DNA of 64,000 nt, from NCBI GenBank assembly GCA_965205865.1, contig CBDBHR010000029.1, forward strand, positions 544,001 through 608,000, in the 5' to 3' direction. How positions within the stretch are numbered: the stretch's first letter is position 1; each line of letters opens with the position of its first letter. The notes beneath the pieces were generated by a model. The model was not told the origin of the DNA. It ran no database searches and worked only from the letters and a program-made list of their open reading frames with translations. The position numbers and the translations under genes are program-made. This DNA comes from a bacterium (lineage in GTDB: Bacteria; SAR324; NAC60-12). Below are positions 12,536-48,310 of the stretch, piece after piece.

Positions 12536-13504
12536 TTACCATTTGAAAGGGTTGATCAGCCGGACCAGGAATCCGCGTTTGCGTTTTCCTGCGGCGCCGT
12601 AACTGCCCTCACCGCCCCGCAGGCGGGGATCGAGCAGATCCCTCATGGCATCGCCGAACATGTTGAGACTGTAGACGACAATCGTCAGGCAAAGCCCCGG
12701 CCAGAGCGCCAGCCGTGGCGCCATCTCCATGTATCTACGTCCTTCCCGGCTGAGCATTGCGCCCCAGTCGGGAAACGCGGGAGGCAGACCGTATCCGAGG
12801 AAGCTCAGAGCGGCTGCGGAGAGGATGTTGCCTCCGATGTTGACCGAGAAGATGATGATCAGGGGAGCCACGATATTGGGCAGGACGTGTCGCATCAGTG
12901 TTTTGGAGGTGGGGCTGCCAAGGGCCTGGGCGGCCAGAAAGTAGTCATTCTCTTTAATACCGATCACGGCGCCCCGGGGCACGCGGGAGCCACTAATCCC
13001 TCCGGTGATCCCCAGCACCACGATGATCTGGAATAAACCCGTCCCCACGATGGACATGATGGTTAACAAGAGCAGCAGTCCCGGAAAACACATCCAGGCA
13101 TCGACAAGGCGCTGCACCACCAGGTCGAATTTCCCGCCAATGAATCCGGAAGTGCCACCAATGAGGACCGCGACGAGCACATTGAGCGTGGTGGCGGCCA
13201 GCCCGACAATCAAGGAAAGACGCGCCCCATAGATCAGGCGGCTCAACAAGTCGCGCCCGATATGGTCGGTGCCCAGGAGATACTGGGCGGAGGGACCCTG
13301 AAACCGGTCTCTCAGGTGCATTTCATAAAAGGGATAAGGCGCCAGCGCATCGGCAAAGATGGCCACAAAAATCAAGAGCAAGACGATCACCCCGCAGGCC
13401 ATCCCCAGGGGCTTCTCCTTGAGCAGCCGGATCAGGAAATCCGCAAAACGGCCTCGTCGCTTGGGCTCACTGACTGCTGATTGTGTTTCTTGGGTGTTAT
13501 TCAT
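12536..13504 (-). CDS. ABC peptide/nickel transporter permease (DppC/OppC-like)
   Basis: LLGTDHIGRDLLSRLIYGAR, HVLPN, LSFLGYG, FGDAMRDLLDPR. Confidence 0.93.
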   Translation of the reverse strand: MNNTQETQSAVSEPKRRGRFADFLIRLLKEKPLGMACGVIVLLLIFVAIFADALAPYPFYEMHLRDRFQGPSAQYLLGTDHIGRDLLSRLIYGARLSLIVGLAATTLNVLVAVLIGGTSGFIGGKFDLVVQRLVDAWMCFPGLLLLLTIMSIVGTGLFQIIVVLGITGGISGSRVPRGAVIGIKENDYFLAAQALGSPTSKTLMRHVLPNIVAPLIIIFSVNIGGNILSAAALSFLGYGLPPAFPDWGAMLSREGRRYMEMAPRLALWPGLCLTIVVYSLNMFGDAMRDLLDPRLRGGEGSYGAAGKRKRGFLVRLINPFKW

Positions 13505-13526: not shown

Positions 13527-13916
13527 AGTCCCGGAGGGACGAAAGGGAATAGCCCAGCGATTCATCGCTGGAAAAGGCCCCCCCCTCCTCCTCAGCTAGT
13601 CCCGGAGGGACGAAAGGGAATAGCCCAGCGATTCATCGCTGGGAAAGGCCCCCCTCCTCAGCTAGTCCCGGAGGGACGACACTTCTTCGATCTTTCGAGT
13701 TACTCCCATAAGGAAAAAGGTGCTTTTTGATTTCAGGAGTCATCCTCTCAATTCGGATTTTTGTGCTAAAGACACAATGAAGATGATTGCTAATTTATGG
13801 AATGGGACATGAAACCTCATTGTTGTGTCGTCCCTCCGGGACTTTAAAGGAGACTGTCTTTAGGAAGTAGCCCAGCGATAAATCGCTGGGCTACTTCCTG
13901 TCGTCCCTCCGGGACT
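13527..13916. repeat. REP-like cluster (AGTCCCGGAGGGACG / CCCAGCGATWMATCGCTGG) around an IS200 tnpA remnant
   Basis: Direct copies at 13527, 13598 and 13664; inverted copies at 13827-13843 and 13900-13916. Confidence 0.85.
13705..13810 (-). pseudogene. tnpA: IS200/IS605-family Y1 transposase N-terminal remnant
   Basis: MSHS, frameshift, then ISNHLHCVFSTKIRIERMTPEIKKHLFPY; GAGG RBS. Confidence 0.75.
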
Positions 13917-13964: not shown

Positions 13965-14963
13965 CTATTCATACCGCACCCTCGGATCCAAATAAGGATA
14001 AATCAGGTCGATCAGGAGATTGATCCCCATCACCCCGGCGGCGAAAAACAGGTTGACTCCGGAGACCACCGGGTAGTCTCGGTCCTGGAGTGCCAGCAGC
14101 AAGAGACGACCGATCCCCGGCAGGTTGAAGATGTTCTCCATGATCACGGCGCCCCCGACCAGGAGTGGCAACTGCAGGCCGATCAGGGTGATAACCGGGA
14201 TGAAGGCATTCTTGAGGGCGTGTCTCACCACGACGACCCGCTCCTTGAGCCCCTTGGCCCAGGCGGAGCGGATATAGTCCTGCCTTAAGACCTCCAGCAT
14301 CATGGTGCGCGTCATGCGCATGGTGGCTGCCGACAGGGCCGTCCCCAGAATCAGGCTGGGAATGATGAACATCCCGAGATTCCCCAGCGAGTCTTCGGAG
14401 AAGGGAATCAGCTCCATCGAGGGCGACCAACCCCACCAGATGACGGGGTAGAGCATGACCATAATTCCCAGCCAGAAGTTCGGCGTGGCCAAGCCGATGA
14501 TGGCGAAGGTGCGCCCCAGGTAGTCGGCGGTCGTATCCTGGCGAATCGCCGAGTAGATGCCCACGGGCAGCGCGATCAACAGCCCGATGACGATGGCCAG
14601 GACACCAAGCTCCAGGGTGACTGGCAATCGAATGAATATCTCCACCTCTACCGGCCAACCGCCCAGCAGTGATTTGCCCAGGCTGCCCTGGAGGATACCG
14701 TTGAAGCGGGACTCACCGGTAACCCAGTCAGGGGTCGGCAACACTCCGATCCAGCGTCCATACTGCACGTAGACGGGCACGTCCAGTCCCAGTATACGCT
14801 CAAGCACGTCACGGTCTAACTTACCAACCGCCCACTCTGTCTCATCCGCCATCGTGTCTATGATATCGCCGGGGATGAAGCGCACGGACAGAAAGACCAG
14901 GACGCTCAATAGAAACAGGGTGGGAATTACGAGCAATAAGCGCCTGATGAGATAGGCTTTCAT
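13965..14963 (-). CDS. ABC peptide/nickel transporter permease (DppB/OppB-like)
   Basis: YLIRRLL, PGD, QDYIRSAWAKGL, HALKNA, YLDPR. Confidence 0.93.
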   Translation of the reverse strand: MKAYLIRRLLLVIPTLFLLSVLVFLSVRFIPGDIIDTMADETEWAVGKLDRDVLERILGLDVPVYVQYGRWIGVLPTPDWVTGESRFNGILQGSLGKSLLGGWPVEVEIFIRLPVTLELGVLAIVIGLLIALPVGIYSAIRQDTTADYLGRTFAIIGLATPNFWLGIMVMLYPVIWWGWSPSMELIPFSEDSLGNLGMFIIPSLILGTALSAATMRMTRTMMLEVLRQDYIRSAWAKGLKERVVVVRHALKNAFIPVITLIGLQLPLLVGGAVIMENIFNLPGIGRLLLLALQDRDYPVVSGVNLFFAAGVMGINLLIDLIYPYLDPRVRYE

Positions 14964-15024: not shown

Positions 15025-16884
15025 CTAATACCCCATTTCTTTCTTCAGCTCCTGGTCAATCCAGAGGCGGGTCCAGAGGGTAGGATAGTTACTCCCATCG
15101 AATATGTATTCACCGTTGTAGCCTTTAACCCACGGCTGGAGCGCGACAAAAAATGGCATTTTAAGCCCCCATATTTGCCAGTGCTTCTCTATTACGTACA
15201 TATCTGCCTTTTTAACCAGCGGCTTCTGCTCCTCAATGGTGGTAGCGGCTTCGGCGGCTTCAACCATGGCGTCATAAACCGGGTCCTGGACTCCGGGGCG
15301 GTTCCAGAGAGACCTGTCCGTATGGAACCCGCCTAACAGCCATATAGGGTCAGCATCCCAGCCTGCAAGCGCATTCACCATACCGTCATAAGTATGTTCC
15401 CTGATACTAGAGACATGACGAGCTCGGTCCTGGATAAAAATCTCTACCTCAACCCCAATGGCACGAAAGTACTCTACGAGTATTTCTGCATAGGTTATAG
15501 GGGATTGGAAGTAGTATTCCCAGGTGGTCTTGAATCGAATGCCGTCCGCGCCGCGCGGATACCCAGCCTCATCAAGGAGCTTCTCGGCCCCTTCCGGGTC
15601 ATAGGTATAGCGTTCCTGGATCTCTTCGGGCCACTCTTCAAATGGGTTGTTATACCCTTTTATGCCAGACCCGATCATCCCCTCGGGTTTCGTTTCTGCC
15701 CAACCCTTAGCCCAGGTCTCGCTAATGGTCTCAAGGTCCAGTGCCTTCTGCATGGCGATGCGCACCCTGATATCATTAAAGGGCGGCTTGCGTACATCGG
15801 GAGCAATACCATATACCATCCGACCACTAACCGGCATAAACACGATTTCAGGGTTGCTCTGCATGACGCTCTCGACCACGTCGATATCCCCTTGCTCAGC
15901 ACAGCCGCCAATCCCTATCAAATCAATCTTACCCGAGCGCAGTGCCGCTATAACTGATTCGTTTTCTTTAATAACCAGACCTCTGTACTCGTCAACATAG
16001 GGCAGGCGGTTCTCTGGGTATTTTTCGTCGTAGTCCCAGTAGTCAGGATTCCTGGTCCAGGTCATAGAGCTGCCAAAGACCCACTCGGTCAGCATAAAGG
16101 GCCCGGTGCCGACCAGGTTCCTCCAGTCCTTAAGGTCGCCGTGTTGTTCGATGACCTCGCGTGGTAATATCCAACCATTGGTGTCGCCGAGGATAATCAA
16201 CAGCGCACCGAGGTCTGGCCGCTTGAGTTTAATCTCAACCGTCCATTTGTCGGTGGCCGTTATCGATTCCAATGGCAGACCGGCGAGCTTGCGTGCATAG
16301 GGACTAGGTCCGGCGTCGGCGAACTTGCCCAGACCCGCATAACGGTGGTAGTTCCATTCGACATCATAGGCATCAAATTCTCGACTGTTCATTGGTGCCT
16401 TATTATGCCAGTGAACGCCCTGGCGGATGTTGAGGACATAAGTTGTTGGGTCGGGTTGCTCCCAGCTTTCAGCCAGGTGCCCTGTTCTGGCAAATTCAGG
16501 TATCCAGAACCCAGGGTTGAAGTTATATTCGTCCCTGGGTATTGCCCAGTTCCCGATGCTCAGCTTCTCTATAACCCCACTGATGGTGTGAGCGGCCGAG
16601 CTAAACCAGATGTCGGCATTACGCGGAGCCTCGCACTTCTGGACTTGGGTGAATGTCCCCCCATATCGAGGGGCTTCCACCATTTCACCGGTGCTGGGAT
16701 CCATCACCATCTTTTTCTCAGCCGCCACGGCCGAACCGACCCCGAGGGCGGCCACCATCAGGGTGAGGGTGAGCAACAAGGATTGCATCCCCGCTTTCGC
16801 GAGGACAAGCTTTTGTACAGCAGACCAAGCGCCTGCCGGGTTCAGCCCCGCGAAGGGGGGCGACAAGTTTTTCATACTATTCAT
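15025..16884 (-). CDS. ABC transporter substrate-binding protein, family 5
   Basis: PRYGGT, LAESWE, IRQGVHWH, GTGPF, PFNDIRVR; GAGG RBS before the ATG at 16884. Confidence 0.92.
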   Translation of the reverse strand: MNSMKNLSPPFAGLNPAGAWSAVQKLVLAKAGMQSLLLTLTLMVAALGVGSAVAAEKKMVMDPSTGEMVEAPRYGGTFTQVQKCEAPRNADIWFSSAAHTISGVIEKLSIGNWAIPRDEYNFNPGFWIPEFARTGHLAESWEQPDPTTYVLNIRQGVHWHNKAPMNSREFDAYDVEWNYHRYAGLGKFADAGPSPYARKLAGLPLESITATDKWTVEIKLKRPDLGALLIILGDTNGWILPREVIEQHGDLKDWRNLVGTGPFMLTEWVFGSSMTWTRNPDYWDYDEKYPENRLPYVDEYRGLVIKENESVIAALRSGKIDLIGIGGCAEQGDIDVVESVMQSNPEIVFMPVSGRMVYGIAPDVRKPPFNDIRVRIAMQKALDLETISETWAKGWAETKPEGMIGSGIKGYNNPFEEWPEEIQERYTYDPEGAEKLLDEAGYPRGADGIRFKTTWEYYFQSPITYAEILVEYFRAIGVEVEIFIQDRARHVSSIREHTYDGMVNALAGWDADPIWLLGGFHTDRSLWNRPGVQDPVYDAMVEAAEAATTIEEQKPLVKKADMYVIEKHWQIWGLKMPFFVALQPWVKGYNGEYIFDGSNYPTLWTRLWIDQELKKEMGY

Positions 16885-17016
16885 TGTAACCTCGTTTAAT
16901 TGAGGGTGTTGAGAACGATTCACCCGACATAGGGCGAATCGGTTTTCGCAGCAGACACAACGTCTGCCACGATCAGCCCCACGAATCGGGCCAGAAATTT
17001 CTTAAGATACATAGGG

Positions 17017-17300
17017 TCCTTTCTTTGCTTGAGGGGTAACTATTTAGGTCTCTGAAAAACCCGTTTAGTTCAATATCGGTGAAAAAAGATTCCCGAAGAG
17101 GATCCATCACTTCACTTCCTCCCGCACCTATTTTGAATCGAACGGGCGGGAACCCTCCCAAGATTTTGTTCAATCGATCGGGTCAACCCTCTCTTTTATC
17201 TGAAAAACACAACTTAACGAAGGCACGATTATAGTACAATAAAATGCAATGTCAATCCCCTGATGTAAAATAAATTCGGGATTCGCAAAAAAAAAAAAAT
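17017..17300 (-). repeat. Promoter/leader module, copy 1
   Basis: Homologous to 17335-17516 and 47351-47790. Confidence 0.85.
17228..17255 (-). promoter_or_regulatory. Consensus sigma70 promoter
   Basis: TTGACA-N16-TATAAT on the minus strand. Confidence 0.8.
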
Positions 17301-17334
17301 CAATAAATCTACTCAAATCCGGGGACAGTCAGAA

Positions 17335-17516
17335 GCCGTTCAGTTCAATAACGTTGAAAAAAGATTCCCGGGAAGGATCCATCGTTTTCACATCCTCCCG
17401 GGGTATTGTTCAATCGATCGAGCGGGAATCCTCCCACAGCTAATTTTGAATCAAACGAGCGGAAATCCTCTCCTTCCCTAAAACAACAAGGCATGATTTC
17501 AGCACTACTACGCGGC
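17335..17516 (-). repeat. Promoter/leader module, copy 2
   Basis: Shares GAAAAAAGATTCCCG..GGATCCATC and TTGTTCAATCGATCG with copies 1 and 3, and AAAACAACAAGGCATGATTT with copy 3. Confidence 0.85.
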
Positions 17517-17599
17517 GCAAAGCCTATAGCAAGTTTGGATCAGGAGAATTGCGCAACAAAGGAGGTCAGCTATAAAAAGATATATTGCGGTCCATCTTC

Positions 17600-18090
17600 G
17601 GCATGAGCCAAAAAGCGAATGTTCGCTCCACAGTCCAGCGTTTTTTCCAACGGCGATCATGATCGCAAACGCTTTGCCAGGGAGGTAAATCATGGCCAAG
17701 CATGCTCCACTGACAAGCCGTTTTCAGGACATACAAAATCGCATTGACGATGCTACGTTTGCTATGAATACTTTTGGCCACGCAGGGAGCGGATATCTCT
17801 CTCGGCTTGGTTGTTGTCAAAAGGAACTTGAAAGTCATGCATGAATAACAAGCTTTCCTTTTCATATAGTTACGAAAAATTTTGACAACCGAAATCAAGC
17901 CTGCTTGCGCGGTCAGGTCTTTGCCTCCCTGGCTGATATGGATGTTTTTTGCTGACGGTCTTGCCGATCTTGTGCTACGATTGTTCTTCATGGAAATGGT
18001 GATCTCTCAAAATGTTGATTTGGGTGTTAACTATTTGAATATATTACTATTTCCATGTTTGATTGTCATCCAATCGCAGAATTTGGGTTT
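17600..18090 (-). pseudogene. Fused IS remnants: IS1380-like N-terminus, IS66 fragment and internally deleted IS5-family piece
   Basis: [31 protein letters not shown] in another frame (17789-17863); IVNAILYVLKTACQW..LPPWQSV and KRWTVERTFA. Confidence 0.75.
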
Positions 18091-18196
18091 GACTTGATTC
18101 TTTGTTGAAATTACAAACAAGTTATTACCTTGATCAAATTTTGATGTTGCTCAATCACAAGATCATACCAGGTCGTTTTATCAAAAAGTCTCTCTT

Positions 18197-19663
18197 ATGG
18201 CATTGATGTCTATCAGTCGGATCATCTCCCATCATGCGGCAAAACATCCCGAATGGCCCGCTATTACCCATGAAGGACATACTGTGACCGGCAGGGAATT
18301 GGATCTTCATACGAACCGCTTGGCACGGGCATATCAACAAATGGGAGTCAGGCAAAACGATTTTGTGACCGTGGCTCTTCCCAACTGTATCGAATTCTAC
18401 GAAGCCTGTATTGCCATCTGGAAACTCGGCGCTATTCCGCAACCTGTTTCTTACCGTCTCCCTGAAATGGAGTTAGCGTCCATTGTGGAATTGGCAAACC
18501 CGCCTTTGATCGTCGGAGTCGAATTCGGGCAACTCAAAAACCGTCAAATCTTGCCTGCCGGGTTTCAACCGGACCCTCGACTTTCAGACGATTTATTACC
18601 CGATGTGGTTGCCAAACACTGGAAGGCACCGACTTCAGGAGGCAGTACCGGACGTCCAAAGCTGATTGTTTCAGGAGATCCGGGTGAGATGGACCCGGAG
18701 CAGGAGCCTGTTTATTACAATTTATTGTTACCGGGAGGCACTCATTTGGTTCCCGGACCTTTATATCACAATGGACCATTTACCTATTCAATGATTGCAA
18801 TGTTCCGGGGCTGTCACATAGTACTGATGAGTCGATTTGATGCCAAGGAAACCTTGGGTCTCATCGAAAAATATCAAGTCACATGGGTAATGATGGTACC
18901 CACCATGATGCACCGGGTCTGGCGGCTTGGAGAGGAAATTCGCAATCGATATGATCTCTCGTCTCTGCGCGTCATGCTTCACTTGGCAGCGCCTTGTCCG
19001 ATTTGGCTCAAGGAAAAGTGGATCGAATGGTTGGGAGGTCGGGTTTATGAATTGTATGCCGGTACGGAAGGAATTGGAATCACCTGGATCACCAGCGAAG
19101 AATGGTTAGTGCGCAAAGGATCTGTGGGAAAACTGATCACTGAAGGCCAAATCAAAATTGTTGGTAAGAACGACGAGGAGTTAGCGCGGGGTGAAATCGG
19201 TGAAATTTATTTTCTGCCTGCAAAAGGGCAGGGGAGCACCTACCACTATATTGGCGCAGAAGCCAAATCGATCGAAGGGGGTTGGGAATCTCTTGGCGAC
19301 ATGGGGTATATGGATGAAGAAGGCTATATTTACCTTTGCGACAGAAGGAAAGACATGATTCTCAGCGGAGGCGCCAATATCTATCCTGCCGAAGTGGAAG
19401 CGGCGATCGATTCTTTTTCCGGAGTTCGTTCCAGCGCTGTGCTCGGCTTACCGGATGAAGATTTAGGGCAAAGTGTTCACGCCATTGTGGATGCCCCTGA
19501 TGGAATCAATAGTGACGCGTTGTTGGCCCATCTCGCCGAACGACTGGTTCGTTATAAAATTCCACGTAGCTTCGAATATGTCGACGCGCTGCTGCGGGAT
19601 GATGCCGGAAAAACCAGGCGCTCCGCATTGCATCGAGAAAGAATTCAATCTCAATCAAAATAA
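18197..19663 (+). CDS. AMP-binding acyl-CoA synthetase
   Basis: TSGGSTGRPK, YAGTE, GDMG, DRRKDMILSGGANIYP. Confidence 0.93.
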   Translation: MALMSISRIISHHAAKHPEWPAITHEGHTVTGRELDLHTNRLARAYQQMGVRQNDFVTVALPNCIEFYEACIAIWKLGAIPQPVSYRLPEMELASIVELANPPLIVGVEFGQLKNRQILPAGFQPDPRLSDDLLPDVVAKHWKAPTSGGSTGRPKLIVSGDPGEMDPEQEPVYYNLLLPGGTHLVPGPLYHNGPFTYSMIAMFRGCHIVLMSRFDAKETLGLIEKYQVTWVMMVPTMMHRVWRLGEEIRNRYDLSSLRVMLHLAAPCPIWLKEKWIEWLGGRVYELYAGTEGIGITWITSEEWLVRKGSVGKLITEGQIKIVGKNDEELARGEIGEIYFLPAKGQGSTYHYIGAEAKSIEGGWESLGDMGYMDEEGYIYLCDRRKDMILSGGANIYPAEVEAAIDSFSGVRSSAVLGLPDEDLGQSVHAIVDAPDGINSDALLAHLAERLVRYKIPRSFEYVDALLRDDAGKTRRSALHRERIQSQSK

Positions 19664-43231: not shown

Positions 43232-43907
43232 AGAAAGGGGGTCAGGCCTTTGATTAGGTGATTAACCTGAGTTCGAGATAAGAATTTAATAAATTCAATA
43301 TGTTATGGAATCTTCATATCTTAGAGAAACCTTGATAGGGGTCAGGAAGGCATTAGCCTCCCTGCCCTCCGAACCGTGCGTGCGGTTCTCCCGCACACGG
43401 CTCTCCAGTCGTTGGTTTCCTCATCGGGATTGGCTCGCTACCCATCGGGCTTCTTTCATGGTGAAAAGTCCGAGTTGCGCAAAGAAGAGATCGCCTTTGA
43501 CTCCGTTACCCAGAGCCGCCAACATACGTTCGATCCATATCGTTGTTTCCACCCAACTCCAATGAGGAGAGAAAGGGGGTCAGGCCTTTGATTAGGTGAT
43601 TAACCTGAGTTCGAGATAAGAATTTAATAAATTCAATATGTTATGGAATCTTCATATCTTAGAGAAACCTTGATAGGGGTCAGGAAGGCATTAGCCTCCC
43701 TGCCCTCCGAACCGTGCGTGCGGTTCTCCCGCACACGGCTCTCCAGTCGTTGGTTTCCTCATCGGGATTGGCTCGCTACCCATCGGGCTTCTTTCATGGT
43801 GAAAAGTCCGAGTTGCGCAAAGAAGAGATCGCCTTTGACTCCGTTACCCAGAGCCGCCAACATACGTTCGATCCATATCGTTGTTTCCACCCAACTCCAA
43901 TGAGGAG
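43232..43907. repeat. 338-bp tandem duplication (43232-43569 / 43570-43907)
   Basis: Identical 86-aa ORFs at 43305 and 43643; 2-nt AG junction overlap. Confidence 0.92.
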
Positions 43908-45404: not shown

Positions 45405-46589
45405 CTAGTGTGTCGCTCTTTTATTAATGTGTAAAAAAATCCTTGGTTTGCTATACTACGAGCTGTCCTTTTTTTTGCATATATGGAGACAGCATGAGAA
45501 AAGCACCAAGTATAAAACTGACCCGGGAAGAACGGGATGAATTGGGCAAAACCGCACGCCGTCATACCGGAGCGATGCGAGACACTCGTCGTGCGCGCAT
45601 CATCCTGTTGGCTGCTGATGGCCTTAAGAATCAAGAAATTGCCAAAACGCTTGGAACCAGCGGTAATGCCGTTGGAAAGTGGCGACGGCGCTTTGTTGAA
45701 AAAGGAATAACAGGTCTCAATGATGATCCGCGGCCTGGCAGGACACGCATTTATGGAGCGGATAAAATCGAGGAGATTGTGAAGAAAACCATTGAAGAGA
45801 AGCCTGAGGACCGTACCCATTGGAGCACGCGATCGATGGCCAAGGCAGTTGGCGTAGGCAAGACAACCGTCGGTAAAGTATGGAAGGCCCATCGCCTCAA
45901 GCCTCATCTGGAAAAAACATTTAAGTTGTCGCATGATAAGCATTTCACTGCGAAACTGAAAGATGTCATCGGTTTGTACATGAATCCTCCTGAGAAAGCG
46001 CTGGTCTTGAGCGTCGATGAGAAATCACAAATCCAGGCACTCGATCGCACCCAGCCAGGTCTGCCACTGAAACCAGGGCGCAATGGCACCAGAACTCATG
46101 ATTATATCCGTCATGGCACCTGCTGTCTGTTTACTGCTTTGAATACGCAGACAGGGGAAGTGCTCGCTCGCTGTGAAAAACGGCACCGACACCAAGAGTA
46201 TCTGCGCTTCCTGCGTCTTATTGACAAGACTACCTCGAAGCAACTGCAGGTACACTTGATCCTGGACAATTACGCCACCCACAAACATCTTAAGGTGAAA
46301 GAATGGCTCAAAAAACACCCGCGATTTCACCCGCATTTCATTCCTACTTCCTCCTCATGGCTGAACATGGTGGAACGCTTTTTTGGCAAGATCACTGCAG
46401 AACGGATTCGACGAGGCGCCTTCAAAAGCGTGCTCGAGTTGACCGAAGCCATCCATAGTTACATCGAGACACACAATCGCAACCCAAAACCCTATGTCTG
46501 GACTAAAACTGCCGAAGAAATTATCAACAAACTCAAACCTGTCTACCAAATGACCAATAATACAATGTATTAAACAGGCAATACACTAG
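45405..46589 (+). mobile_element. IS630-family insertion sequence, apparently intact
   Basis: CTAGTGT...ACACTAG ends with TA duplication at a CTAG target. Confidence 0.9.
45494..46573 (+). CDS. IS630 family transposase
   Basis: HTH, SVDEK, DYIRHGT, ILDNY, SSWLNMVERFF; GGAG RBS. Confidence 0.95.
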   Translation: MRKAPSIKLTREERDELGKTARRHTGAMRDTRRARIILLAADGLKNQEIAKTLGTSGNAVGKWRRRFVEKGITGLNDDPRPGRTRIYGADKIEEIVKKTIEEKPEDRTHWSTRSMAKAVGVGKTTVGKVWKAHRLKPHLEKTFKLSHDKHFTAKLKDVIGLYMNPPEKALVLSVDEKSQIQALDRTQPGLPLKPGRNGTRTHDYIRHGTCCLFTALNTQTGEVLARCEKRHRHQEYLRFLRLIDKTTSKQLQVHLILDNYATHKHLKVKEWLKKHPRFHPHFIPTSSSWLNMVERFFGKITAERIRRGAFKSVLELTEAIHSYIETHNRNPKPYVWTKTAEEIINKLKPVYQMTNNTMY

Positions 46590-47350: not shown

Positions 47351-47790
47351 TCCTTTCTCAAAAGGTAACTATTCAGGTCTCTTAAGAACTGGACTTTGGA
47401 CATTCGATTTATTCTTTTAATTTTCATTATTCAATAATATCAATTGGTTGAAATTCTTTAAAAAATTAATACAGGTTACTGTTTTCTATTTTTGATGATA
47501 CGACCTGTATTAATTCCAATACAGATTCGTAAGACATTGATTTTATTAAACCCAAAAGTTAGATAAAATGTTCAAAGTCGAGTTAAGAACCCGATTGGTT
47601 AAATAACGTTGAAAAAAGATTCCCGGGGAGGATCCATCGCTTTCACGTCCTTCCACGATATTGTTCAATCGATCGGGTGGGAACTCTCTCCTTCCTTAAA
47701 ACAACAAGGCATGATTTTAGCACTACTACGCGGCCTCAAGCCCCAAATGAAAAAAATGCGGGATTCGCAAAAAATTTAAAAAATCATAAA
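47351..47790 (-). repeat. Promoter/leader module, copy 3 (interrupted by a MITE)
   Basis: Homology to copies 1 and 2 on both sides of 47389-47582. Confidence 0.85.
47389..47582. mobile_element. 194-bp AT-rich MITE
   Basis: TIRs CTGGACTTTGGACATT / AATGTTCAAAGTCGAG; 7-bp TSD TTAAGAA. Confidence 0.8.
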
Positions 47791-48310
47791 ATCAAGGAGG
47801 AAGGCGATTGATTTTTTTGAAAATGTTGGATAACAGAGGACCGGGAGACGCCTTCGCACAGCAAAAGGGAAGGAAAAGGGAGCATACAGTCGTAGGGAAT
47901 AAGGCATTGGGATAAAGATTTTTCTTTTCAAAGACCATTCGAACTTGTGAGATTATCTATTGGTGGGCATAATTGGGAGAACAGATGATCGCCTGAAAGG
48001 GTTTTCGACCGATGAGTTCCTCAAGTGGGGGCGCGTTTTTTCCAACAGTTTCCAAAGTGGAACGTGAGGCATTTAACATAAAAATCGACATGCTCGGACA
48101 CAGACTGGTTCATATCAAACGACTCGATTTAAAATAAGGAAGCCAACGATTTTTTAGAATCAAGGATTCGAAATTAGCGATATTCATATGTGGAAAATTT
48201 CAACATAGAGTCAAATAACCCACTCCAGTCGACGGCATAAAACAGTTAAAGAATTTTTAGAAGTACTGGATCCAACCTATGACAAGTCACTCATTCAAGA
48301 GATCAAATCG

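Follow-up and report, generated by a model that had tools for sequence, protein, structure and literature searches.

A genus-specific dispersed repeat cassette associated with solute-binding protein genes in a SAR324 bacterium

The window analysed here is a 64,000-nucleotide (nt) stretch from a SAR324 bacterium (assembly GCA_965205865.1, contig CBDBHR010000029.1, positions 544,001 to 608,000). Its minus strand carries three copies of a short element, two near 17 kb and one near 47 kb, which the original prediction had read as a three-copy promoter and structured-leader module, a candidate cis-regulatory RNA or attenuator. These copies are a small sample of a genus-specific, modular, promoter-bearing dispersed repeat cassette tied to an expanded family of solute-binding protein (SBP) genes. 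Copies 1 and 2, which had been treated as independent, form a single tandem doublet of the usual kind, in which copy 2 is the upstream unit (unit A) and copy 1 the terminal unit (unit B; coordinates in Table 1).

Copy number, architecture and taxonomic range

The host genome (G000) consists of 4.74 Mb in 30 contigs, and a sister genome of the same genus (G001) was used for comparison. A BLAST search with copy 1 against its own genome gave 100 matches, with E-values against other loci down to 1e-65, so the repeat lies far above chance. The nhmmer search found 136 matches after round one and 170 after round two, which collapse to 111 loci. Of these matches 79 are at least 200 nt long, and partial or truncated copies are common (39 of the 111 loci are shorter than 150 nt). 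Units were delimited by two anchors, the -10 box with CATGCC and, for the hairpin and T-tract, CGGGAATCTTTTTT; 85 units in G000 carry both. The count of three copies was therefore far too low.

Each unit is about 230 bases long and occurs singly or in tandem arrays of two to four. The 5' part runs from a T-tract through GCGAATCCCG and an A/T-rich stretch to TTGACA, a spacer, TGn-TAnnAT and CATGCCTT (CATGCC). The middle part has a short 5' hairpin, GAAGGAGAGGGTTCCCG and then one to four 35-nt subrepeats with the core CGATCGATTGAACAATAYCGT. The 3' part is made of a GGGAGGA-loop-TCCTCCC hairpin, CGGGAATC-T6 and CAACGATATTGAACTAAACGGGTTTTT; the tail of terminal units adds CAGAGACCTGAATAGTTAC, and the 3' end of the element is AATAGTTAC. 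Among the 85 units the distance from the -10 box to the T-run is 111-118 nt in 47, 140-155 nt in 32, 183-250 nt in five and 74 nt in one, length classes which arise because the number of 35-nt subrepeats varies from 1 to 4. The commonest array is a doublet in which an upstream unit (model positions ~30-252) is followed, after 21 nt, by a terminal unit (model 1-272).

In 54 terminal units the 3' boundary at AATAGTTAC is sharp and the sequence that follows differs between loci, which supports the portability that had been suggested for the element. Comparison of the unit ends (GATTTATTGATTTT.. and ..AATAGTTAC) shows no inverted repetition, and no duplication is present in the flanks. An identity as a miniature inverted-repeat transposable element (MITE) or as the end of an insertion sequence (IS) was rejected on these grounds, the unit having neither terminal inverted repeats nor a target-site duplication. 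With 111 loci, one to four internal subrepeats and conserved 5' and 3' modules, it is a modular dispersed intergenic repeat, BOX-like in kind.

The element is restricted to one genus. BLAST searches of 41 genomes detected the unit in G001; outside the genus, 39 genomes from the family and order gave no convincing match, the sole other hit being 29 nt long (E 7.6e-4). A covariance model built from 20 units scored 70 or more hits apiece in G000 and G001, none in the 43 other genomes of the family (2 of 45 including the genus) and none in 62 other genomes of the order, from 26 genera (2 of 64 including the genus). A motif scan of a species-representative genome collection matched only the G001 record, and motif scans of metagenome contigs gave no match. 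Public runs that hold the locus of the window include sponge metagenomes. No such element is described in the portion of the literature that a search brought up, which does not establish it as unpublished.

The same two genomes are rich in family-5 SBP genes. First-look candidates for the SBP_bac_5 family number 184 in G000 and 131 in G001, against 2-38 in the 43 other genomes of the family. TBLASTN searches returned 129 SBP high-scoring segment pairs longer than 300 amino acids (aa) in G000.

Downstream genes and promoter features

The association with genes was counted over 72 G000 arrays of at least 150 nt. The dominant neighbour is an SBP paralog in 42 arrays (the largest forward open reading frame (ORF) starting within 700 nt, on the same strand and with SBP_bac_5), another co-oriented ORF in 14, a larger reverse ORF in eight and none in the remaining eight. 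A co-oriented ORF thus dominates downstream in 56 of the 72, and by TBLASTN a same-strand SBP match lies within 2.5 kb in 50. Pfam scans of 13 of the 14 other forward ORFs found five transposases, four proteins with a family of another kind (GATase_5, TauD, outer-membrane beta-barrel, PhoU) and four without a family, while the six scanned among the eight reverse ORFs comprise two transposases and members of GDPD, HhH-GPD, Uma2 and FG-GAP. Several of these exceptions are transposase genes inserted after the array. A Shine-Dalgarno (SD) sequence and start codon follow within 200 nt in 33 of the 54 terminal units, and in 22 of these they stand 22-40 nt past the element end. In G001 a same-strand SBP match is found within 1.4 kb at 14 of 20 element ends.

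Promoter statistics were taken from 97 units, 85 from G000 and 12 from G001 loci. In the -10 box, position 1 is T in 91 of the 97, position 5 is A in 95 and position 6 is T in 93. Position 2 is A in 76, and all 21 of the G's found there belong to the TGAAAT (A-type) class; position 4 is A in 77. Position 3 is unconstrained (A 49, G 25, T 18, C 5). This contrast of fixed and free positions matches sigma-70 requirements and supports the view of the unit as a promoter; nothing else in the unit gives a clearer sign of selection. The dinucleotide TG stands ahead of the box in 83 units. Among the 76 units outside the TGAAAT class a perfect TTGACA is present in 43 and a 5/6 match in 13 more. In the 21 A-type units the best -35 match is 3/6, and no usable -35 remains because an IS remnant ends there.

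Copy 1 was predicted to carry a perfect TTGACA-16-TATAAT, and the promoter scan agrees, scoring it 12/12 where shuffles of the region average 2.5 weaker sites. Judged by hexamers 16-18 nt apart and by A2 and T6 in the -10 box, copy 1 is a putative sigma-70 promoter. Differences in spacer length between units stem from short GTA/GTT runs, and the length of the upstream T-tract also varies (examples of the spacer classes are found at C24:100855, C30:484565 and C26:290690). Such variation might reflect slipped-strand switching of promoter strength, or no more than decay.

The copy number, architecture and orientation of the cassette, its association with genes, its taxonomic range and the clustering of units by genome are observations; promoter activity, partial termination and mode of spread are read from sequence in what follows. 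The explanation favoured here, to which a little better than even confidence is attached, is a genus-specific promoter cassette dispersed upstream of SBP genes and homogenised by copying. In this explanation the cassette of about 230 bp, single or in two to four tandem copies, would be placed directly ahead of the start codons in many family-5 SBP paralogs. An intact B-type unit most likely acts at the DNA level as a sigma-70 promoter, composed of the A/T-rich upstream stretch, TTGACA and TGn-TAnnAT, and would also supply the first 100-190 nt of the 5' untranslated region. This leader would contain the 5' hairpin, one to four subrepeats, the GC hairpin with its U-run and a tail ending 22-40 nt before the start codon. 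The chances are about even that the hairpin and U-run end a share of the transcripts, or protect the gene from transcription arriving from upstream. A-type units may be a homogeneous variant of more recent origin, joined to what is left of a dead IS, and their promoter looks defective. The copies would stay alike mainly through copying between loci within the genome, rather than through a selected RNA fold.

RNA structure and the likeness of the copies

The fold predicted by RNAalifold has three parts. In the outer stem, CGGGAAUC and the U-run are matched, largely by G-U pairs, to the purine tract and GGUUCCCG; the others are an inner hairpin GGGAGGA/UCCUCCC and a bulge of 20-22 nt that holds the subrepeat core. 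Hairpin pairs are kept in 94-98% of cells, and compensatory change was found at none of the 24 RNAalifold pairs, not one being altered on both sides. With the 5' hairpin added (34 pairs), 93.2% of cells are paired compared with 93.0% in shuffled alignments, and the covariation score equals that of the shuffles (0.117 in both). One pair of the 5' hairpin does vary, with 11 CG and 5 UA in the 20-row alignment; in 52 rows, whose relatedness is uncontrolled, the same pair is CG 28, UG 10, UA 5 and CA 1. The window copies fold no better than dinucleotide shuffles (z = +0.50, -0.87 and -0.29). As the original prediction had expected, they match no known family: Rfam gave no match at gathering scores in a search of the whole window at the module coordinates, and at E up to 10 within 16850-18150 it gave only three chance-level microRNA and small nucleolar RNA matches.

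The geometry is likewise not that of a canonical intrinsic terminator. The inner hairpin has a loop of 13-15 nt (exceeding 8), T6 starts 8 nt past the inner stem, and the U-run is reached only by a composite stem with the 20-22-nt bulge. Alternative, antiterminator-like pairings can be drawn, on the same background of no compensatory pairs and a covariation score level with shuffles. One of them, between the bulge CAATATCGT and ACGATATTG after the T-run, was rejected, as its 9 bp in B-type units are broken in the A-type without compensation. The predicted MDP.RESFF mini-ORFs are present in the window, but across the 97 units their start triplet is ATG in 40, ATC in 35 and ATT in 19; a leader peptide was rejected because the start codon is not conserved.

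These results bear directly on a regulated attenuator or riboregulator. In such a system transcripts from the promoter would end at the hairpin and U-run unless a factor (protein, small RNA or ligand) bound the 35-nt subrepeats, and dozens of SBP operons would come under one post-initiation control. The layout is suggestive, as the hairpin and T6 always lie between promoter and gene and the subrepeat-initial GGGAGG doubles as the 5' arm of the hairpin. The GGTTCCCG of each subrepeat can pair with the U-run-adjacent CGGGAATC to give alternative pairings, the subrepeat core CGATCGATTGAACAATA is among the best-kept stretches, the G-U pairs make the outer stem strand-specific, and the varying 5'-hairpin pair, with its UG and UA states, counts on the same side. 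Against this stand the missing compensatory pairs, a covariation score and paired share equal to those of shuffles, the folding z-scores, the non-canonical terminator and the lack of an Rfam match. The pairing of the bulge with the sequence after the U-run is not kept across unit types, the similarity between copies is explained by homogenisation within the genome, and at the locus of the window even the two species have different subrepeat numbers. The attenuator or cis-regulatory RNA proposed for the three copies is thus not supported by comparative or thermodynamic evidence here, and it is considered unlikely. A further possibility, also quite doubtful, is that the cassette is a self-propagating regulatory module whose RNA subrepeats, together with the U-run hairpin, constitute an attenuator dependent on a protein, or else a GGA-rich decoy (e.g. 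for CsrA). If true, 40 or more nutrient-uptake operons would have been wired into one post-initiation regulon by leader copying, and subrepeat number and spacer (13-14, 16-18, 20-22 nt) would be tunable or switchable settings of each operon.

A GGA-rich RNA bound by CsrA had also been proposed. Each unit holds 4.69 GGA motifs compared with 2.05 in shuffles (2.3-fold enriched), but only 23 of 455 are unpaired in minimum free energy folds. Known CsrA sponges present GGA in loops, and the mostly paired GGA predicted here speaks against such an architecture. A CsrA gene is encoded in G000 (PF02599, 92 bits, C29:321790-321948, plus strand). An SBP_bac_5 gene is located about 1.5 kb downstream of it (C29:323404-324450). 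A search of the genome for ANTAR regulators found no match, and as control genomes were equally silent this is uninformative. In an array of independent small-RNA genes every unit would produce a 100-135-nt GGA-rich RNA that binds CsrA or another regulator in trans. Each unit is indeed a self-contained stretch from promoter to U-run and units are tandem, GGA is enriched, CsrA is present, and a 99-nt RNA-library contig covers 17067-17164, though this contig shows neither ends nor strand and could come from any paralogous copy. The paired state of GGA opposes the idea, about 100 gene copies would lack precedent, and strict co-orientation and closeness to start codons point to a role in cis; small-RNA arrays are considered very unlikely.

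The absence of covariation is compatible with a role of the subrepeats as DNA. An operator array would bind, at the subrepeats and at the related ATTGAAC after the T-run, a transcription factor able to block or activate the promoter next to it. One to four repeats of the core ..CGATCGATTGAAC.. stand at a fixed 35-nt period downstream of the promoter, and ATTGAAC recurs in the tail. However, no candidate factor was identified, the core has no clear dyad symmetry, the sites would fall past the start point, and neighbouring or orthologous units differ in how many they have, without an evident pattern. This explanation is regarded as highly improbable.

The likeness of the copies is better described by their relationships within each genome. 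In a maximum-likelihood tree of 62 one-subrepeat units (45 from G000 and 17 from G001) the genome label changes four times, compared with 15.2 times in shuffles (0 of 500 as low), and 14 of the 17 G001 units form one clade with a Shimodaira-Hasegawa-like approximate likelihood ratio test (SH-aLRT) support of 99; the G001 rows were taken from best-hit loci, which may exaggerate the clustering. Identity was compared in 15 clean doublets of G000. The median pairwise value is 0.949 for unit A and 0.858 for unit B, but 0.44 in the 150 nt after the element and 0.53 at 600-1200 nt downstream. The same dead IS junction stands ahead of many arrays. Clustering by genome indicates probable concerted evolution, and together with the common IS junction it argues for transfer of sequence from one locus to another inside a genome, through gene conversion or recombination. 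The likeness of the copies can then be explained with no need for purifying selection on an RNA fold.

The G001 counterpart of the doublet's locus is a single unit with one subrepeat and without the IS remnant. Identity between the window and G001 is 0.73 in the promoter part, 0.88 in the tail and 0.81 in module X, a second repeat described below. The neighbouring permease is 93.5% identical (0.95, 0.97 and 0.87 at the three codon positions). With unit identities of 0.73-0.88 against 0.87 at permease third positions, the units are not better kept than near-neutral sites; this codon comparison uses the permease row only, the SBP rows being affected by indel frame errors and a split G001 gene.

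Such figures would suit a selfish or neutral repeat, in which promoter and terminator features are relics of a founder and the position next to SBP genes results from duplication of gene and upstream region together. Concerted evolution with lineage-specific clades, the many partial copies, arrays interrupted by IS elements and a MITE, the half of good -35 boxes that lie at non-functional spacings and the interspecies identity just given all agree with it. It does not account for the orientation bias and the tight 22-40-nt distance to start codons, nor for critical -10 positions that are invariant beside a free position 3. Furthermore, SBP proteins have diverged to 45-57% aa identity while units are at ~86%, so the units do not simply share the age of the duplications. 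A purely selfish or neutral origin is judged rather unlikely.

The favoured explanation, a promoter cassette homogenised by copying, has its own difficulties, to which the possible exaggeration in the tree belongs. Within the window the promoter scan called copy 1 alone, and not copies 2 and 3. Among the 56 non-TGAAAT units with a -35 match of at least 5/6, only 27 have a spacer of 16-18 nt; it measures 13-14 nt in 14 others and 20-22 nt in the remaining 15, and many units may be weak or silent as a result. A scan of 16800-18200 called no terminator-like sites, in line with the unusual geometry of the hairpin and T-run. Of the 117 SBP paralogs located, just 40 are preceded by a unit at a distance of 1.2 kb or less, so most members of the family do not require the cassette. 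Nor are the units bounded by inverted ends or target duplications that would point to a mode of spread. A young repeat is conserved everywhere, making conservation weak evidence of function, and it is the contrast between -10 positions alone that would argue for selection. The RNA runs, being Logan contigs of a multicopy repeat, decide nothing on transcription start or 3' end. All of these points weigh against the favoured explanation.

The window's copies in context

Table 1. Repeat units, their parts and neighbouring features in the window.
Feature	Position	Strand	Basis
Unit A (copy 2), upstream unit of doublet	17331..17560	-	nhmmer C29:561331-561560, model 18-252
Unit B (copy 1), terminal unit of doublet	17036..17309	-	nhmmer C29:561036-561309, model 1-272, 278 bits
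Putative sigma-70-type promoter of unit B, TTGACA-16 nt-TATAAT	17228..17255	-	scan 12/12; activity predicted
Two ~35-nt subrepeats of unit B, GAGGGTTGACCCGATCGATTGAACAAAATCTT and GGGAGGGTTCCCGCCCGTTCGATTCAAAATAGGTGC	17124..17193	-	read from sequence
Hairpin of unit B, GGGAGGA..TCCTCTT, then CGGGAATC and T6	17082..17123	-	RNAalifold consensus
Conserved tail after T-tract, CACCGATATTGAACTAAACGGGTTTTTCAGAGACCTAAATAGTTAC	17036..17081	-	88% identical to G001 counterpart, best-kept part of unit
Decayed IS4/IS5-family remnant directly upstream of unit A	17560..18085	-	Pfam DUF4096, E 6.6e-14
Module X, second repeat	16885..17035	-	66 nhmmer matches in G000
Family-5 ATP-binding cassette (ABC) solute-binding protein gene served by doublet	15025..16884	-	Pfam SBP_bac_5, E 2e-59
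Two permease genes after SBP gene	13965-14963 and 12536-13504	-	ORF list
Copy 3, single unit, one subrepeat	47585..47792	-	nhmmer C29:591583-591792, model 2-255
MITE-like 198-bp insertion in copy 3 tail	47387..47584		inverted arms 47387-47411, 47560-47584
Rest of copy 3 tail, ..TTCTTAAGAGACCTGAATAGTTAC	47365..47386	-	then SD and ATG of 59-aa ORF (47344-47165)

Most of the sequence features described at the outset are found in the window as placed: the minus-strand -10-like boxes TATAAT, TGAAAT and TAAAAT followed by CRTGCCTT, the ~35-nt subrepeats, the copy 2 hairpin (CCCGGGAGGAT..ATCCTTCCCGGG, then AATCTTTTTT) and the tail ..AATAGTTACC common to copies 1 and 3. In unit A the -10-like TGAAAT (~17501-17496) follows TG, has no A at position 2 and lacks a usable -35, the -35 region being replaced by the end of the IS remnant. 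The unit has two subrepeats, the hairpin with a 12-bp stem, T6 at 17362-17357 and a tail ending ..CCGGATTTGAG. Unit B spans a T13 tract to the element 3' end ..AATAGTTAC, with its TATAAT at 17233-17228. Back-pairing is possible in it between CGGGAATC with the T-tract and the upstream GGTTCCCG with the purine tract. Its tail ends 23 nt ahead of the first downstream ATG, and genome coverage by the repeat drops from ~60 to ~17 copies just past 17036.

The original prediction had named absent covariation, or a match to an IS end or decayed gene, as counting against it, and both apply in part: covariation is absent, and copy 2 adjoins a decayed IS4/5-family transposase gene. This remnant has a 141-aa ORF (17566-17991) that ends soon past a ..ERTFAFW motif, DUF4096 being a putative IS4/5-family transposase domain, and the stretch has ~24-41 BLAST copies in G000. 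Its left end resembles that of a 1696-bp IS with 5-bp target duplications. The 1696-bp IS has the ends CCTAAATCCTGC.. and ..GCAGGATTTAGG and ~27 full copies in G000 (e.g. C3:56817, C29:639095); it is apparently active, and the remnant appears to be a diverged, truncated relative. The IS remnant and unit A were also considered together as a mobile MITE. This was rejected, as only the window copy has both end-like sequences and it lacks a target duplication.

Between the doublet and the SBP gene is module X. The 30-aa ORF (17012-16920) first described as an unrelated ORF lies in this repeat. Module X contains an SD, an ATG, a peptide-like M.LKKFLA..GL.VA.VVSAAK stretch and two hairpins, and is found in one to three tandem copies between the cassette and SBP genes; in many copies the frame continues into the SBP signal peptide. 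The module in the window has a one-base shift relative to G001 and is frameshifted. In-frame copies would give SBPs N-terminal extensions of 40-100 residues or an alternative start series.

The G001 counterpart of the SBP gene of the window (L103, G001:C1:1156648-1162901) is split into ORFs of 283 and 384 aa. Nucleotide identity between this counterpart and the gene of the window is 82%, even across codon positions (0.82, 0.82, 0.83), and on this pattern the SBP at this locus is probably relaxed, diversifying or pseudogenised. Three matches to the Rfam Acido-Lenti-1 RNA (13527-13572 and 13598-13643 on the minus strand, 13871-13916 on the plus strand; 50-56 bits, gathering score 37) fall within the 460 nt that separate the two permease genes of this transporter operon. 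In four RNA-library runs the SBP and permease genes have a high summed depth of Logan contigs, and the units a lower one. Depth at 17079-17560 is 67-75 in run X18 and 73, then 5.4, in X19, and upstream of 17560 it is lower still (1-29). No conclusion is drawn from these depths, as Logan contigs of a multicopy repeat reveal neither starts, ends, strand nor locus.

Copy 3 has the -10 box TAAAAT (47719-47714) after TG, a -35 TTGAGG at a short spacer, the hairpin and a T6 ending at 47612. The limits first given for it (47351-47790) enclose the MITE-like insertion that splits the unit from the rest of its tail. The arms of the insertion are 25 nt long and 80% complementary, and GTTCTTAA flanks it on both sides; a similar insertion end, CTGGACTTTGGACATT, occurs at another locus near C30:937863. 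The 59-aa ORF after the tail has no Pfam family. About 1 kb from copy 3, a 376-aa ORF (45443-46573, plus strand) has by eye the look of an IS630/Tc1-type transposase (helix-turn-helix, DDE-like region). The catalytic domain of a group II intron (RF00029) is found twice on the minus strand, at 43335-43405 and 43673-43743 (54.3 bits each, 338 nt apart).

Several known systems share part of this architecture; the cassette resembles BOX elements, Correia elements and multigene 5' cassettes in kind, and differs from each in build and in its tie to one gene family. The BOX elements of Streptococcus pneumoniae have the structure boxA-boxB(n)-boxC. They too number about a hundred dispersed intergenic copies, have a varying number of a short internal subunit between conserved end modules that can pair with each other, and are found near gene starts with effects on the expression of neighbouring genes. 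Unlike them, the cassette has a full sigma-70 promoter motif, a strict orientation towards one gene family and whole-unit tandem arrays, and is confined to one genus; no sequence relation was found, the comparison being made through Rfam only. Correia elements of Neisseria and similar promoter-bearing MITEs, too, are short intergenic repeats in many copies, and can provide adjacent genes with promoters and terminator-like hairpins. They have terminal inverted repeats and a TA target duplication, whereas the cassette has neither and its orientation is non-random.

In the upstream homology box of Borrelia erp/mlp genes and the promoter and signal-peptide region of Mycoplasma vlp genes, as here, the upstream and N-terminal parts are the most alike among paralogs, evolution is concerted and promoter spacer length varies through short repeats. 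Those genes encode surface lipoproteins, rather than periplasmic ABC binding proteins, and repeated whole promoter units with a hairpin and U-run are peculiar to the present case. Terminator attenuators and riboswitch leaders (e.g. T-box) have the same order of promoter, 100-190-nt leader, hairpin with U-run, SD and gene. The cassette differs from them in having no Rfam match, no covariation and no canonical terminator geometry, and in that one leader, homogenised within the genome, serves dozens of diverged paralogs. CsrB and RsmZ are similarly GGA-rich with a terminal U-run, and CsrA is encoded in this genome as well; in the cassette most GGA is in predicted stems, and there are ~100 copies and a cis tie to downstream genes.

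For genome scans the case is a caution that a few look-alike "leaders" in one window can be the tip of a dispersed family, and that within such a family conservation between copies says little on RNA structure. It also makes available a natural set of ~100 variants of promoter and leader, with different spacer lengths and subrepeat numbers, for use in reporters. More broadly, a large lineage-specific expansion of uptake genes can bring along a copied, concertedly evolving promoter cassette instead of independently evolved promoters, and the genus described here, an uncultured and sponge-associated one, offers a compact natural case of regulation being rewired as a repeat spreads.

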